A stretch of 64,000 nucleotides of DNA from NCBI RefSeq assembly GCF_058153355.1, contig NZ_CM177019.1. One strand, 5' to 3'. The position numbers and the translations under genes were made by a program. The notes below the pieces were generated by a model. That model was given only the letters and a program-made list of their open reading frames with translations. It was not told the DNA's origin and did not search any database. Of the stretch, positions 52,707 to 57,787 are shown piece by piece (position 1 is the stretch's first letter; every line of letters begins with the position of its first letter).

Positions 52707-52780
52707 GCGGGCGTAGTTCAATGGTAGAACGAGAGCTTCCCAAGCTCTATACGAGGGTTCGATTCCCTTCGTCCGCTCCA
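52707..52780 (+). tRNA. glyU: tRNA-Gly (anticodon CCC)
   Basis: GCGGGCGTAGTTCAATGGTAGAACGAGAGCTTCCCAAGCTCTATACGAGGGTTCGATTCCCTTCGTCCGCTCCA: cloverleaf, anticodon loop cuuCCCaag, T-loop GGTTCGATTCC, encoded CCA. Confidence 0.95.
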
Positions 52781-52944: not shown

Positions 52945-54309
52945 ATGCTGCTTTCAGACCTTGCCATCAGGCGCGCGAAGCCGAAAGAAAAGGCTTATAC
53001 ACTCAATGACGGTAACGGGCTTTCGTTGCTCATTGAGCCGAACGGTTCGAAAGGGTGGCGACTGCGCTACAGGTTTGCAGGAAAGCCCAAAATGTTGTCG
53101 TTGGGTGTGTACCCTGATGTGTCTCTGTCTGATGCCAGGGCGGCAAGGGATGAGGCTAAAAGGCTTCTTGCTGGTGGTATAAATCCAAGTGAGGCCAGAA
53201 AAGCCCAAAAGCGAGAACAGGCGAGCAAATTTGGCAATACTTTTGAGGGTATCGCTCGCGAATGGTACGAAAAGCGGATCGACAGGTGGTCATCGTCATA
53301 CGCCGAGGAAATGATCGAGACGTTTGAAAAAGACGTTTTTCCGTACATTGGCGGTAGGCCGATCGCAGAAATTAAGCCGATGGAATTGCTGGCGGTTCTT
53401 TCCCGTCTTAATGACCGTGGTGCGACTGAAAAATTGCGTAAGGTTCGCCAGCGATGTGGCGAGGTGTTCCGGTACGCAATCATCACCGGACGCGCCGAAT
53501 ATAATCCAGCCCCTGACCTGGTGAGCGCATTTGCTCCACATAAAAAAGAGCATTACGCCTGTTTGAAGGCCGATGAACTGCCGGAATTTTTCCGCGTTTT
53601 TAATACGTACACCGGAAGCCAGATCGTCAAACTGGCAATGCGGCTATTAATTCTGACAGGTGTCAGACCCGGGGAATTACGGCAGGCAGAATGGCGGGAG
53701 ATCGATTTTGATAATCGTTTGTGGGAAGTGCCTAAAGAACGAATGAAGATGCGCCGTCCGCATTGCGTGCCATTACCAGAACAGGCGATAAAAATACTGG
53801 AGCAGTTAAAAAACATGACAGGTCAGTATCAGTTTATTTTCCCCGGTCGTATTCACCACAGTAAACCAATGAGTGAAATGGCAATGAATGTGCTCATTCG
53901 TCGTATTGGCTACGCCGGGCGCGTTACTGGTCATGGATTCCGGCACACCATGAGCACCATTTTGCATGAGCAGGGCTATAACACCGCGTGGATAGAGACA
54001 CAGCTTGCGCACGCCGATAAAAACTCAATTCGTGGCACATACAACCATGCGCAATATCTGGATGGCAGACGCGAAATGCTCCAGTGGTATGCCGACTATA
54101 TGGATTCGCTCGAGCATGGCGGAAATGTGGTGCATGGTGAGTTCGGAAAATGCGGGGGACTGGTTGAGTATACAGTAGTAGACTTTGAGCGACTAAAAAC
54201 GGCTGTGTCTAGGGTCGCTCCTGAAAACCCGTACACCTCTGCGGGCTGGCACAGCCACTATGGTAGAGGGCGCGAGGTGACGCGTGATCGATATTGCCGA
54301 ATTACTTAA
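52945..54309 (+). CDS. P4-family (tRNA-targeting) tyrosine integrase, about 454 aa
   Basis: Start MLLSDLAIRRAKPKEKAYTLNDGNGLSLLIEPNGSKGWRLRYRFAGKPKML is the classic P4-type Int N-terminus (arm-binding domain). Catalytic R..HxxR..Y region present (GHGFRHTMSTILHEQG; RGTYNHAQY). Lies 165 bp after the tRNA 3' end. Confidence 0.9.
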   Translation: MLLSDLAIRRAKPKEKAYTLNDGNGLSLLIEPNGSKGWRLRYRFAGKPKMLSLGVYPDVSLSDARAARDEAKRLLAGGINPSEARKAQKREQASKFGNTFEGIAREWYEKRIDRWSSSYAEEMIETFEKDVFPYIGGRPIAEIKPMELLAVLSRLNDRGATEKLRKVRQRCGEVFRYAIITGRAEYNPAPDLVSAFAPHKKEHYACLKADELPEFFRVFNTYTGSQIVKLAMRLLILTGVRPGELRQAEWREIDFDNRLWEVPKERMKMRRPHCVPLPEQAIKILEQLKNMTGQYQFIFPGRIHHSKPMSEMAMNVLIRRIGYAGRVTGHGFRHTMSTILHEQGYNTAWIETQLAHADKNSIRGTYNHAQYLDGRREMLQWYADYMDSLEHGGNVVHGEFGKCGGLVEYTVVDFERLKTAVSRVAPENPYTSAGWHSHYGRGREVTRDRYCRIT

Positions 54310-54604
54310 CGCAGAAAAGAATAATTTCATTAGCCTGAGAGAGTTAATAGAGCGTATTAAATTATCTCAACCGAAAGCTACTACATCCCAGATAGTAAGT
54401 TTTCTTTATCAGACGCGGCAGAAATTACCCGAATGGGTTAAGTGGGATGAAATGATGGGCATTGAGCAAACATCGGAGAATCCTTTTGATGGGGATTGGT
54501 CTTTATCAGAGGTTCTTGAAGGCATTTTAAGACTAGGCTTTGTGCCAGAGGTTGAAGATTCTGTACCCCTCGCTATCGATGATAGCGACGATATTCCGTA
54601 TTGA
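54284..54604 (+). CDS. hypothetical protein (106 aa) with SSB-like acidic C-terminal tail ...DDSDDIPY; AT-rich cargo
   Basis: GTG start at 54284 six nt after GAGGTG, overlapping the int 3' end; about 40% GC versus about 52% backbone; C-terminus LAIDDSDDIPY resembles the SSB DDDIPF tip. Confidence 0.55.
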   Translation: MIDIAELLNAEKNNFISLRELIERIKLSQPKATTSQIVSFLYQTRQKLPEWVKWDEMMGIEQTSENPFDGDWSLSEVLEGILRLGFVPEVEDSVPLAIDDSDDIPY

Positions 54605-54623
54605 TGAAGACTTAAGGTGAATT

Positions 54624-55067
54624 ATGGCAGATGAAGTTTATTTGGCTCGTGCTTGTGATAAGTATGGTTTTCGTCGAGCAGAGCTTAAAGAATTTGCTGA
54701 AAAACTAGGGGTTAATTTATTTTCCCCAATGGATGAAATAACCCAGTCCATTCCTGAGGTTGCTGCTAGTGATTCTTTGAATAATGGGCCGACTGTTGAT
54801 GAATTACGTGCGGAAATTGCTTTACTTAAAGCGCGAATTGAAGAACTTGAAAGCGAACGACCAATTCTCTTAAATAAATACAGGGATAATGATCCGCTAT
54901 ATCTGGCTATCGAGATTAGAAACAGAGAGTGGGCCAATTACGACCCGGAGAATGATCGCGCCACCAGGGGAAACCAGGGCGCGATTACTACTGAGCTTGA
55001 AAAACGAGGTTTTACCTCCCGACAGGCCGCATCTATTGAGCTTGTCGCCTGTCCTATCAAACGATGA
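54624..55067 (+). CDS. hypothetical protein (147 aa), predicted coiled-coil centre; AT-rich cargo
   Basis: ATG at 54624 with AAGGTGA RBS 6 nt upstream, 19 nt after previous stop; LRAEIALLKARIEELESER heptad-like segment. Confidence 0.55.
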   Translation: MADEVYLARACDKYGFRRAELKEFAEKLGVNLFSPMDEITQSIPEVAASDSLNNGPTVDELRAEIALLKARIEELESERPILLNKYRDNDPLYLAIEIRNREWANYDPENDRATRGNQGAITTELEKRGFTSRQAASIELVACPIKR

Positions 55068-55080
55068 AGCCTTACCCTAG

Positions 55081-55230
55081 AGGTATCTCATGTTTTGTTC
55101 GCGTCTCACCCTAAGGGTAATCAGACCTCACCCTTAGGGTATTTTTGTATGCTTTCCCATCAATTTTACTATTACCCTTAGGGTAAAAATATTCCCGATT
55201 ACCATTAGGCCTGAGGGTATGAAAATATTC
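55081..55230. promoter_or_regulatory. array of near-palindromic ACCCT(A/T)AGGGT motifs upstream of alpA (putative operator array)
   Basis: taccctagaggta (55081), caccctaagggtaat (55115), cacccttagggtat (55137), tacccttagggtaaaa (55181), cctgagggtatg (55218); spacings about 23, 43 and 36 bp. Confidence 0.55.
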
Positions 55231-55287
55231 GTTATTTCTGTGCCATGATTACCTCGTCAAATTGAGTAGACGTTATGAGGTAAATAT

Positions 55288-55485
55288 ATGTCAAATACGC
55301 TTATTCGTTTAACGGAAGTTCAGCGTAGAACTGGATATAGCAAGGCATGGATTTATCGCCTTATGGGGCAAGGTAAATTTCCTGCATCAGTTAAAATTGG
55401 CTCGCGAGCTATTGCTTTCGTTGAGAGTGAAATTGACGAGTGGATTAATCAGCGTATTGCTGAATCACGCGGAACAGCTACCTGA
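55288..55485 (+). CDS. alpA: AlpA-family phage/island transcriptional regulator (MerR-like HTH, 65 aa)
   Basis: MSNTLIRLTEVQRRTGYSKAWIYRLMGQGKFPASVKIGSRAIAFVESEIDEWI is the canonical AlpA/prophage CP4-57 regulatory protein pattern. Confidence 0.88.
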   Translation: MSNTLIRLTEVQRRTGYSKAWIYRLMGQGKFPASVKIGSRAIAFVESEIDEWINQRIAESRGTAT

Positions 55486-55563
55486 TTAAATGGCTACGGG
55501 GCCAGAAGCCCCAGCTATCCACCAGCAAATAAAAAGTAACTTAATTCGATAGCAGGAGTTTTT

Positions 55564-56364
55564 ATGAAATTTCCAAAAACGCCCATACAGGGGCAGGGCT
55601 TCGTTCGGCTTGAAAACCAGAATCTGCAAAATTTTGGCAAAATTATCCCGGTTATTTCCGGCGTTATTGGCGGGCGTGAAACCAATATTGTTAGCGCCAG
55701 AGCGTTGCATAAGGCGCTCGGGGTAGGCCGTGATTTCACAACCTGGATTAAAGTACGCATTGATGAGTACGGATTTAAAAAGGGCGTGGATTTTGAATTC
55801 GTAGAAAATTTGACCTCCCCCAATCCGGTGAGCGCAAAATCTCGCCAACGTATAGAGCACGACTACCTGAGCACTATCAACATGGCGAAAGAACTGGCGA
55901 TGGTCGAACGCACCGAACAGGGCCGCGCCGTTCGTCAGTATTTCATCAAATGCGAGGAGGAGCTACACAAGGTAGCGCCTGTGCGTTCCGCAGCGTTACG
56001 CCGGGAACTGAAAGCCCGTATCACTGTTGCCAGCTACTTTAAGCCAATGTGCGCCGCGCTGGAGGCGTACCGGGCAGAACTGGGTAAAAACACTCTACAG
56101 CACCACTACACCACGGAAGCTAATATGCTGGCGCGTATCGTGCTGGGTGGCATGACTGCAAAACAGTGGGCACTGGCGAACGGCATCACAAGCGAACCAC
56201 GCGACCACATGAGCACGTTGCAGCTTGAGCACCTTTCTTACCTTGAGCAGAGCAATATCACGCTGATTGAGTTAGGCCAGGACTACCACCAGCGGAAAGC
56301 TGAATTAATTCGTCTTTCGCAGCGCTGGTTAGCCCGTCGCATGGAGGAAAACAACCATGTGTAA
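55564..56364 (+). CDS. AntA/AntB-type antirepressor-like protein (266 aa)
   Basis: N-terminal segment SARALHKALGVGRDFTTWIKVRIDEYGFKKGVDFEF fits the AntA domain consensus (..L...L.....F..WIK.RI.EYGF..G.DF). Confidence 0.7.
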   Translation: MKFPKTPIQGQGFVRLENQNLQNFGKIIPVISGVIGGRETNIVSARALHKALGVGRDFTTWIKVRIDEYGFKKGVDFEFVENLTSPNPVSAKSRQRIEHDYLSTINMAKELAMVERTEQGRAVRQYFIKCEEELHKVAPVRSAALRRELKARITVASYFKPMCAALEAYRAELGKNTLQHHYTTEANMLARIVLGGMTAKQWALANGITSEPRDHMSTLQLEHLSYLEQSNITLIELGQDYHQRKAELIRLSQRWLARRMEENNHV

Positions 56365-57018
56365 CGCTCTGACCGTTACAAAAAGAGAAAGCGCCCCGTT
56401 GCCGGAGCGCCTTTGTGAACGAATAGCCTACTGCGCCATATTGCTTACTGTCTACGAGGCAGATTATAGCGTTGTGGTCGCACAGAGTGAAGGCACTGAT
56501 CACCGTTACTACAGCACGCCAGAAATGCAGAATATTTTGCTGCAAAATGCCGCTGGCCACGCTGTCCGGAAAGCAAAAAATTTTGCTGGTGGCGCGACTG
56601 ATACGATTTTTTCTGGTCGCCAGGTGCTGATCAATCTGATGTCTGATTTCGTTCTGGATAAAACAAAGGCGACCGCAGAGGGCCACCAGTGGGAAAGCTA
56701 CACACTTGAACACATCGCCAACAATGCCAGATTTGCGGCTGGTGGGCAATGTGATCAGTGTGTTGGCTTGCTGGTGGGCTGTTCGTCTGGTTCAGTCCGT
56801 TGCCATGCATGGAGTGAACGCATTTTCCAGGAATACTCTTTGAGGTACTTCTCAAGAGCAAACGCACACGGGGCGAATCTCTCCGGTTCATGTTCGTTTA
56901 CCGCATTTTTGCGTTGTTTTTTCCTGGATGAGGATAATTTCTTTAATGATTTGTCAGTCATCGTATATACCTGTAACCCTGTGCGCCACAGTTCACTGCA
57001 CCACGGCGCTGATGGTGA

Positions 57019-57198
57019 TTACTCTGATTCTTTGGCCTTGCGGCGCTGGCGGCGTTTGATCTCACCTTCAAGTGCCGAAACGATAAATTGTCCAGTGCTT
57101 TCGCCTTCTTCCTTTAAACTTTCTACAGCGTCAGCTATTGCATGGGGTACTCGTGCCTCAAGTTTTTTTGATTTTCCATTAACTGCTTTCGTTGCCAT
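57019..57198 (-). CDS. ribbon-helix-helix (Arc/MetJ/CopG-like) small DNA-binding protein, 59 aa
   Basis: MATKAVNGKSKKLEARVPHAIADAVESLKEEGESTGQFIVSALEGEIKRRQRRKAKESE: beta-strand K-L-E-A-R-V followed by two helices, classic RHH layout; AAGGGA RBS; divergent from the rightward operon. Confidence 0.65.
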   Translation of the reverse strand: MATKAVNGKSKKLEARVPHAIADAVESLKEEGESTGQFIVSALEGEIKRRQRRKAKESE

Positions 57199-57218
57199 AT
57201 CTGATTCCCTTGTTATTA

Positions 57219-57299
57219 GGTGGCTGACAGTATACACACAAGAAAATGGAAAAACACTATTGACGTGGCTGACACCTGTTACTAGTATAGTGGCTGACA
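57219..57299. promoter_or_regulatory. divergent control region: three direct repeats GTGGCTGACA (57220, 57265, 57290) overlapping a sigma70-like promoter TTGACG-17-TAGTAT reading rightward
   Basis: Motifs read directly; repeat 2 abuts the -35 hexamer (57260-57265) and repeat 3 lies 2 nt after the -10 (57283-57288). Confidence 0.55.
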
Positions 57300-57787
57300 C
57301 CTTTATTAAGGTAATCGATGAAAAGACAAAGCCCGCAGGCGCTACCAACACCAACGGGCTTCTAACCACCAACGATAGAAAGCGTATCGAGGTAGCTATG
57401 TTAAATCATACCACACACCCGCAAGGGCGGGACTCGCACAACCTGAATAAAGCGGGGGTAAAAAACCAGTTGATCGCCACTGCCAGCCAGGGCTATGATT
57501 TATCTGCACCAGCAAAATCTGGTGCCCGGATTGGCGTCCTGAAAATTCTGAAGGCGACATATGACGCGCCGAGCGTCTTTTTTTATGTCGTAGGTCTGAC
57601 TCACCCATTTTTTGGGCGTTGGTGTATAATCCAGCGCCTTTGTCAATCAATGGTGGCTCAGGCGGGGGCTTCTTCGGAAGCGCCGGTATCCTTCAGAGCC
57701 GGTTACGCCAACCCTGTCTGGGCTACCACCAGCGAAATTGGCGTTTCCGGTGGTAGCGTAACCTGCTATCTGAAGGAGGCTGCCGAC

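Follow-up and report, generated by a model that had tools for sequence, protein, structure and literature searches.

The C-terminal tip of SSB (single-stranded DNA-binding protein) is a docking peptide that organizes over a dozen enzymes of replication, repair and recombination in bacteria, and it is also a drug target. In phage T7, the gp4 helicase-primase and gp2.5 both carry acidic C-terminal tails that end in phenylalanine and have a common binding site on the T7 DNA polymerase. Here we describe two adjacent open reading frames, ORF1 and ORF2, the first of which ends in an SSB-like tip. They lie between the integrase gene (int) and the regulator gene alpA of a phage satellite, in a 64,000-nucleotide stretch of an E. 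coli-like chromosome (contig NZ_CM177019.1 of RefSeq assembly GCF_058153355.1; hereafter the window). The satellite has the features of Gram-negative phage-inducible chromosomal islands (PICIs). In these islands alpA is the master activator, according to the accessible portions of two papers (PMC6092414, PMC11773190), and the first of them describes there the mechanism of alpA induction by helper phages as unknown. The accessible text of two satellite papers (PMC10111431, PMC6092414) gives the integration zone as Int and AlpA and mentions no gene family between them.

A conserved SSB-like tail on ORF1

A preliminary description of the window had pointed to two coupled open reading frames of 106 and 147 codons, at about 40% GC, between int and alpA. 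Their coordinates, frames and base composition were all confirmed (GC of 0.40-0.42 over 54350-54950, against about 0.50 in int; Table 1). Each has a ribosome-binding site 4 nt before its start codon, GAGGTG (54274-79) for the GTG of ORF1 and AAGGTG (54614-19) for the ATG of ORF2. The start of ORF1 is also backed by homology, as relatives begin ATG ATT GAT ATT at the same place. The protein does end in LAIDDSDDIPY, and the stop codon directly follows the tyrosine.

Neither protein belongs to a described family, as had been supposed. Scans of ORF1, ORF2 and fused homologues against Pfam, PHROGs, NCBIfam and PADLOC returned only noise or coiled-coil matches, and the PADLOC defense models gave no match for ORF1, ORF2 or two fused homologues. 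In the searchable literature and four profile libraries, we found no description of an ORF1/ORF2 family and no natural protein described as carrying the exact SSB tip on anything other than an oligonucleotide/oligosaccharide-binding (OB) fold. A collection of 50,697 phage records contained no match for ORF1 or ORF2, and a collection of 72,556 plasmid records no match for ORF2. In a sequence search of the PDB, ORF2 gave coiled-coil matches only and ORF1 matched through its tail only, to SSB and SSB-tagged constructs; Foldseek found nothing below E 0.6 among viral structures.

A single-sequence search for ORF1 retrieved the identical protein, present in 17 other contigs, and one relative at 46% identity that ends in DFDDLNIPF. 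Further members, each with an IPF ending, were found as the genes 5' of ORF2 homologues in Salmonella, Kluyvera, Pantoea, Raoultella, Symbiopectobacterium and an Orbaceae bacterium. A profile built from nine sequences then recovered 77 homologue clusters. The tail is -IPF in 70 of these clusters and DIPF in 62, and the majority form is EPPMDFDDDIPF. The seven clusters without -IPF comprise one ending in ILF, one ending in VPF and five that are apparently truncated or frameshifted. The family alignment has 17 columns that are invariant or nearly so, the last three (I, P and F) among them, whereas the preceding linker is full of indels.

When the family hidden Markov model (HMM) was compared with PDB sequences, the tail aligned to residues 161-178 of E. 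coli SSB (1eqq_A), PAAPSNEPPMDFDDDIPF. The consensus EPPMDFDDDIPF is thus identical to the last 12 residues of the host SSB. The proposed likeness of ORF1 to the SSB tail was thus borne out and is not due to chance. Whether homologues keep the tail had been set beforehand as a test of that likeness; in the event, the tail is the conserved feature by which the ORF1 family is defined.

The tip varies in composition within this frame. The acidic run before I-P-F/Y reads DDSDD in the window and DFDDD in most homologues, and it is reduced to WPGD in a Salmonella-type subfamily. The penultimate proline is present in the window. The last residue is tyrosine in the window and in its closest relative, on another contig (L035), and phenylalanine in nearly all other members; the window allele belongs to the sole cluster of the 77 with a terminal tyrosine and is the most degenerate of them. 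Since L035 also ends in a tyrosine (DDSDIPY), the variant is stable. The motif is the extreme C-terminus in the window and in 70 of the 77 clusters, which leaves the tip with a free alpha-carboxylate.

More distant relatives carry similar tips. An exhaustive HMMER search of 1.84 billion representatives gave 41 matches. Among the complete short or N-terminally extended distant relatives, 16 out of 17 have an acidic run ending in PF (for instance DDEIPF, DDEVPF, EEIPF, HELPF and NEPPF) and one ends in QF. The tail is kept across lineages with only 30-49% identity to ORF1 as well as in these distant relatives, one of which comes from Steroidobacteraceae. One distant cluster (P0164), whose tail reads DEEDDHELPF, occurs in >1,000 contigs of the Yersinia pseudotuberculosis complex, including Y. 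pestis, and in about 900 contigs of Y. enterocolitica. As this cluster is so widespread in Yersinia, the ORF1 family is common in important pathogens. The database name of another cluster (P0094), 'DNA primase, SSB, DnaG', hints that an automatic pipeline picked up the tail. For the DNA that encodes the tail in one member (L009), matches lie in the 3' ends of ssb genes only, with values of 81-92% over 25-46 nt. This similarity is no greater than the common peptide would give, and does not by itself indicate that the tail was taken from ssb recently.

Apart from the tail, ORF1 does not look like SSB. Pfam finds no SSB domain (PF00436) in it, and the family HMM meets SSB in the PDB over the last 18 residues only. 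The AlphaFold2 (AF2) model, run separately from that of ORF2, is all-helical, with helices at residues 4-10, 18-28, 34-43 and 74-84, and the C-terminal 20 residues are disordered. The linker before the tip varies in length and is proline-rich in homologues. Judged by sequence and model, ORF1 is not an SSB and lacks an OB fold, and because its domain is small and helical no binding of single-stranded DNA is expected of it. The N-terminal domain is possibly a winged helix, which we treat as a lead and not as a result.

ORF2, fused forms and the int-alpA slot

ORF2 homologues form 76 clusters across the Enterobacterales, and back-translated pattern scans trace the C-terminal domain into the Pasteurellaceae. 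The AF2 model of ORF2 has a mean predicted local distance difference test (pLDDT) score of 72. Its N-terminal hairpin, modeled with low confidence, contains nearly invariant G15 and R18 and an invariant F16; a disordered stretch (residues 29-57) separates it from a long helix, which is probably, on the model, a coiled-coil or dimerization segment. The description of ORF2 as rich in coiled coils is right for this one long helix, with its weak TSC22/bZIP-type matches, and goes no further. The C-terminal domain carries the motif DPLYLAIEIRNxEW...TRGNQ...IELVACPIKR (DPLxLAIxIRNxxW...TRGNQ...IELVACPIKR in the family). In part it is modeled well, with block means of 72-90 and a top of about 90 over residues 121-140, and it holds the majority of the 22 invariant columns of the whole protein. 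The gene 3' of this domain is alpA in every locus inspected, from Enterobacterales to Pasteurellaceae.

The two genes are consistently paired. In every split locus ORF1 lies directly 5' of ORF2, with a gap of 11-27 nt or with overlapping stop and start codons, and the partner gene, also in the distant loci, opens with the YGFRRxEL motif, whose general form is GF(R/K)(R/K)x(D/E)(I/L). In two distant split loci the C-terminal domain of the partner is different or cut by the contig end, and the N-terminal GF(R/K)(R/K)S(D/E)I is kept. The persistence of the motif where the C-terminal domain differs suggests that the constant companions are the ORF1 domain and the N-terminal hairpin of its partner. 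A comparison of tails with partner sequences gave no usable covariation signal, as the partner N-terminus found with a canonical tail is of several different kinds.

Many relatives have one fused protein of some 250 aa in place of the two, which suggests that ORF1 and ORF2 probably work together. For instance, two fused proteins of 248 aa (P0004 and P0006) match ORF1 residues 1-83 at 48% identity and ORF2 residues 4-147 at 76%. In complete E. coli genomes this slot holds an annotated protein of 253-257 aa, whose first 90 residues match the ORF1 profile (hhalign probability 81%) and whose C-terminal part matches ORF2; its middle cannot be aligned with the end of ORF1 or the start of ORF2. Photorhabdus, Cedecea, Atlantibacter and unnamed metagenomic sequences contain further types of fusion, and this variety suggests that fusion arose more than once. 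A joint MAFFT alignment with the fused forms misplaced the ORF1 family on their C-terminal half. The fused forms keep the YGFRRxEL motif.

The fused forms bear on whether ORF1 and ORF2 are merely the halves of a broken gene of about 250 aa, with the tail an accident of the new frame. Complete E. coli genomes do carry a single ORF of 253-255 aa here, the split allele was found in 0 of 5,426 such genomes (over at least 80% of the query), and the window island is decayed. On the other side stand the ribosome-binding sites and start codons of each gene, the recurrence of the exact ORF1 in 17 contigs, the 77 ORF1 and 76 ORF2 clusters across many genera, the unalignable middle of the fused E. coli protein and a tail conserved in divergent lineages. 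The idea is contradicted by the conserved tail and by the wide spread of intact split pairs, and we give it hardly any credence. That the ORFs might be fragments of a larger gene had been raised in the preliminary description: many relatives are indeed fused, the fused protein being itself uncharacterized, whereas the split form is intact and about as widespread. Being intact, with its own ribosome-binding sites and about equally common, the split form is best seen as an alternative architecture and not as a broken gene.

The module is preceded by an RNA element. The int-alpA RNA motif of Rfam ends 14 nt before the start codon of ORF1 in the window. It was found at the gathering score in 15 related loci, and in 14 of them it ends 12-20 nt before the first module gene, split or fused. 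The exception is L019, where an ORF has been inserted between motif and module. As the motif sits directly before the first module gene, the RNA is probably, from its position, a cis-acting 5' leader of the ORF1-ORF2 message and not a free-standing small RNA (sRNA). Downstream, palindromic sites of consensus TACCCTnAGGGTA lie between ORF2 and alpA, and the array is conserved in two related loci (L001 and L002). They are candidate operators of the alpA promoter, at which either AlpA or the ORF1-ORF2 module may act. A promoter scan of 53900-55600 found no sigma-70-like site, and the terminator-like sites there were all on the opposite strand.

The position between int and alpA had originally been taken as one where islands carry variable accessory or defense genes. 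Low GC and the allelic diversity of the middle region between islands are in keeping with this, and satellites are known to carry defense genes. We nevertheless consider it very improbable that ORF1 and ORF2 are such accessory or anti-phage cargo in a satellite hot spot. A survey of the int-alpA interval for swapped cargo found one family, split or fused, in every related locus examined, from Enterobacterales to Pasteurellaceae, and no exchange with unrelated genes among these loci; a conserved RNA leader precedes the module, and PADLOC gave no match. These distribution data contradict a cargo role and led us to abandon that part of the preliminary description. By the comparison of loci, ORF1-ORF2 is a conserved core module of the integration and regulation zone of the island.

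Possible readers of the tail

Four features together suggest that the tail is read by proteins that evolved to bind the SSB tip of the host: across many genera it is identical to that tip over up to 12 residues, it stands at a free C-terminus, the linker before it is flexible, and it is lost only where a fusion at the C-terminus rules it out. So exact an identity speaks for at least one true binder of the SSB tip among its readers. Our leading reading, which we judge an even call, is that ORF1 is a mimic of the SSB tip acting as an adaptor, its tail docking in the SSB-tip pockets of host enzymes. The N-terminal domain of ORF1 would bind ORF2, and the free tip would be offered to pockets for the SSB C-terminal tip (SSB-Ct), for example those of Pol III chi, DnaG, PriA, RecQ, ExoI, RecO and RecJ. 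The ORF1-ORF2 complex would thereby be coupled to the host replication and repair machinery during induction or replication of the satellite. The analysis establishes how the genes are built, conserved and arranged, that the family tail is identical to that of SSB, that an OB fold is lacking and that fusions exist; complex formation and tail docking are inferred, and this holds most of all for the choice of recruitment over competition as the direction of the effect. The effect could take three forms, namely recruitment, competitive titration of the enzymes, or a switch acting through the YGFRR hairpin of the partner.

Identity of the tip with that of the host over up to 12 residues is also what a competitor would need. 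An excess of ORF1 tips could fill the SSB-Ct pockets of low-abundance enzymes and uncouple them from SSB, with ORF2 merely stabilizing or regulating ORF1; this might, for instance, protect satellite DNA from ExoI, RecJ and RecQ or disturb helper or host replication. ORF1 is small and has a strong ribosome-binding site, and further genes that manipulate the host (Icd-like, AntA/Bro, PerC and ProQ) are present in the same islands. However, SSB tails are very abundant in the cell, so that titration demands high expression; the fused alleles do without the tail, and the conserved pairing with ORF2 and the GFRR hairpin would be left unexplained. We consider such a decoy rather unlikely.

The distribution of the tail may instead reflect a function inside the module. 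Almost every intact short form is tailed and every fused form is tailless, as if a covalent link replaced the tail, and a GF(R/K)(R/K) hairpin, with an aromatic and two basic residues, accompanies ORF1 everywhere. The tail could thus bind ORF2, at the hairpin or the C-terminal domain, as a non-covalent tether or an autoinhibitory pseudo-ligand. DNA-bound host SSB tails or an SSB-binding protein of the helper phage could then displace it and signal phage replication to the alpA promoter. The module lies directly 5' of alpA beside the palindromic sites, and the accessible text of one paper (PMC6092414) leaves the induction of alpA by helpers unexplained. A private tether, however, would have no need to keep 12 residues identical to those of the host SSB; the partner N-termini that accompany canonical tails are quite diverse and show no clear covariation with them, and the hairpin model is of low confidence. 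As a complete account we hold this to be unlikely. A switch nonetheless has real weight as a variant, because the tail is lost in all fusions and the module adjoins alpA.

Several of our results weigh against an adaptor that recruits host enzymes. All fused alleles lack the SSB tip, so the tail is dispensable once the proteins are joined, and its loss there fits a tether or switch better than an essential recruitment. The window tail itself ends in tyrosine instead of phenylalanine and has no PPMDF segment. The structural support is limited, with a low-confidence ORF1 model (pLDDT 57) and an ORF2 fold that gave no informative structural match. The module sits in the int-alpA zone and not beside the primase and origin. 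Finally, the copy of the island in the window is decayed: it has lost the int stop, received IS66 and IS110 insertions and has a truncated primase, and for these reasons may be inactive.

A bolder reading combines these elements, and we regard it as quite improbable. The module would be the missing link between helper infection and PICI induction, with ORF2 a receptor for the SSB tip and the ORF1 tail its built-in pseudo-ligand, so that displacement of ORF1 frees the complex. The displacers would be tails of SSB loaded on phage DNA during its replication, or an SSB-binding protein of the phage that the bait has captured. The freed complex would act at the alpA-promoter palindromes, and the int-alpA RNA would set the level of the sensor. 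If this held, a satellite would have a new helper-sensing route through a mimic of the hub tail.

The module is in any case a conserved pair of genes that had been overlooked in the int-alpA zone of Gram-negative PICIs. It places an orphan Rfam RNA motif in a coding context and offers a concrete candidate for how helper phages turn on alpA. Should the tail function in the way its conservation suggests, satellites own a dedicated means to plug into or jam the SSB hub, and nature would have supplied, in the ORF1 family, a ready-made probe or inhibitor of SSB interactions. Docking on the SSB tip is already known; what would be new, if the resemblance of the tails is a guide, is its use as mimicry by a satellite.

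The island and its relation to described systems

In the window the chromosome runs through xdhA, actS and tRNA-Gly(CCC) into the island (Table 1). The island genes follow in the order int, ORF1, ORF2, alpA, an AntA-family gene, an Ash-family ORF with isrK and C4 RNAs, IS66, DUF4222 and a D5_N primase gene. The features of a Gram-negative PICI or P4-like satellite are present, with co-oriented int and alpA at a tRNA, a D5_N primase and no virion genes. The island copy is decayed. The TGA stop of int in relatives, at 54157-54159, is GGA in the window; because of this change int reads through into the start of ORF1, its frame being extended by about 50 codons through the RNA leader to overlap ORF1 by 26 nt. 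The same extended int, of 454 aa, is present in one other locus (L033). The primase gene is cut by the IS110 element, and its frame stops after 346 aa, compared with 584 otherwise.

Intact copies of the same island carry int, ORF1, ORF2, alpA, AntA, Ash, DUF4222, a D5_N/DUF5906 primase, a mini-SSB, ProQ and PerC, so the island type is a replicating satellite with a primase-helicase and its own mini-SSB. The mini-SSB (L037:16162-16509; 115 aa, Pfam SSB) ends in GDNIPF, and an intact island thus carries two proteins with SSB-type tips; in another copy (L036) the mini-SSB gene is truncated to 74 aa.

Table 1. Positions of the module, its parts and neighboring features in the window
Feature	Position	Strand	Description and evidence
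tRNA-Gly(CCC)	52707-52780	+	Island integration site; ARAGORN; Rfam tRNA; xdhA-actS-tRNA-Gly-int context same in E. coli genomes
Tyrosine integrase (int)	52945-54309	+	Pfam Arm-DNA-bind_3, Phage_int_M, Phage_integrase; three-way DNA alignment
int-alpA RNA motif	54202-54269	+	Rfam RF02996; cmscan 45.5 bits vs gathering score 35.8
ORF1	54284-54604	+	106 aa, GTG start, ends ...LAIDDSDDIPY
ORF1 N-terminal helical domain	54284-54535	+	aa 1-84; possibly winged-helix-like
ORF1 disordered linker	54536-54577	+	aa 85-98; pLDDT <50 for aa 91-102; indel-rich alignment columns
ORF1 SSB-Ct-like tip	54578-54604	+	DDSDDIPY, aa 99-106, plus stop; sequence; homologue tails; alignment to E. coli SSB C-terminus; L035
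ORF2	54624-55067	+	147 aa, ATG start
ORF2 N-terminal helical hairpin	54624-54707	+	aa 1-28; conserved YGFRRxEL motif; AF2 helices 2-14 and 18-28
ORF2 long helix	54795-54857	+	aa 58-78; AF2; weak TSC22/bZIP-type matches
ORF2 C-terminal three-helix domain	54882-55067	+	aa 87-147, plus stop; conserved; AF2; invariant columns; upstream of alpA
Palindromic sites	55071-55219	.	Four to five sites, consensus TACCCTnAGGGTA; ORF2-alpA intergenic; repeat families D1-D3, I1-I9
alpA	55288-55485	+	Pfam Phage_AlpA 2.4e-19
IS66 element	58075-60438		Three ORFs; after Ash/C4 region
IS110-family transposase	62248-63423		After D5_N primase gene

Other observations concern the remainder of the window. Matches to the isrK and C4 antisense RNAs (the P4-type immunity RNA and its target) lie at 57506-57583 and 57646-57733, inside the Ash-family ORF region, a placement that agrees with the Bro zone of Gram-negative PICIs as described in the accessible text of two papers (PMC10111431, PMC6092414). 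In the 539-aa ORF at 56357-57976, the Ash match is restricted to the last ~110 residues, and the first ~380 are unmatched and of low-complexity character. Since gene calling in another locus (L032) gives several small ORFs on both strands over this stretch, part of the long ORF may be spurious. Two identical 78-aa ORFs (63558-63794 and 63763-63999), with starts 205 nt apart, imply that the window ends in a tandem direct repeat.

Among described systems, the closest match to the ORF1 tail is the SSB-Ct of E. coli (...PPMDFDDDIPF), to which the family consensus is identical over the last 12 residues. As in SSB, the tip stands at the extreme C-terminus after a disordered, proline-rich linker. Unlike in SSB, it is borne by a small helical domain in place of an OB fold, and the window allele, DDSDDIPY, differs from the E. 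coli tip in its final tyrosine and in having no PPMDF. The SSBs of mobile elements, such as plasmid SSBs and the island mini-SSB, are likewise mobile-borne and end in an IPF tip; however, they have a true OB fold and, in the island, belong to the replication zone, whereas ORF1, the partner of ORF2, has another fold and sits in the int-alpA zone.

The gp4 protein of phage T7 offers a different parallel, as a non-SSB replication protein with an SSB-like acidic tail and a terminal aromatic residue that uses the docking site of the SSB. The T7 arrangement is purely internal to the phage and has its own tail sequence, whereas the ORF1 tail copies the tip of the host SSB on a carrier without a known enzymatic domain.

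The RNA element is listed by Rfam as an sRNA gene (RF02996), and here it is positioned as the leader of a gene of the ORF1/ORF2 family. As for the island as a whole, the Gram-negative PICI layout given in the accessible text of two papers (PMC10111431, PMC6092414) consists of an integration zone with Int and AlpA, a Bro zone with C4 and isrK, and a replication zone with primase and SSB. The island matches this order with int, alpA, AntA, Ash, C4 and isrK, DUF4222 and the D5_N primase, to which intact copies add SSB, ProQ and PerC. It differs from the integration zone outlined there in one respect, the presence of a gene pair between Int and AlpA.

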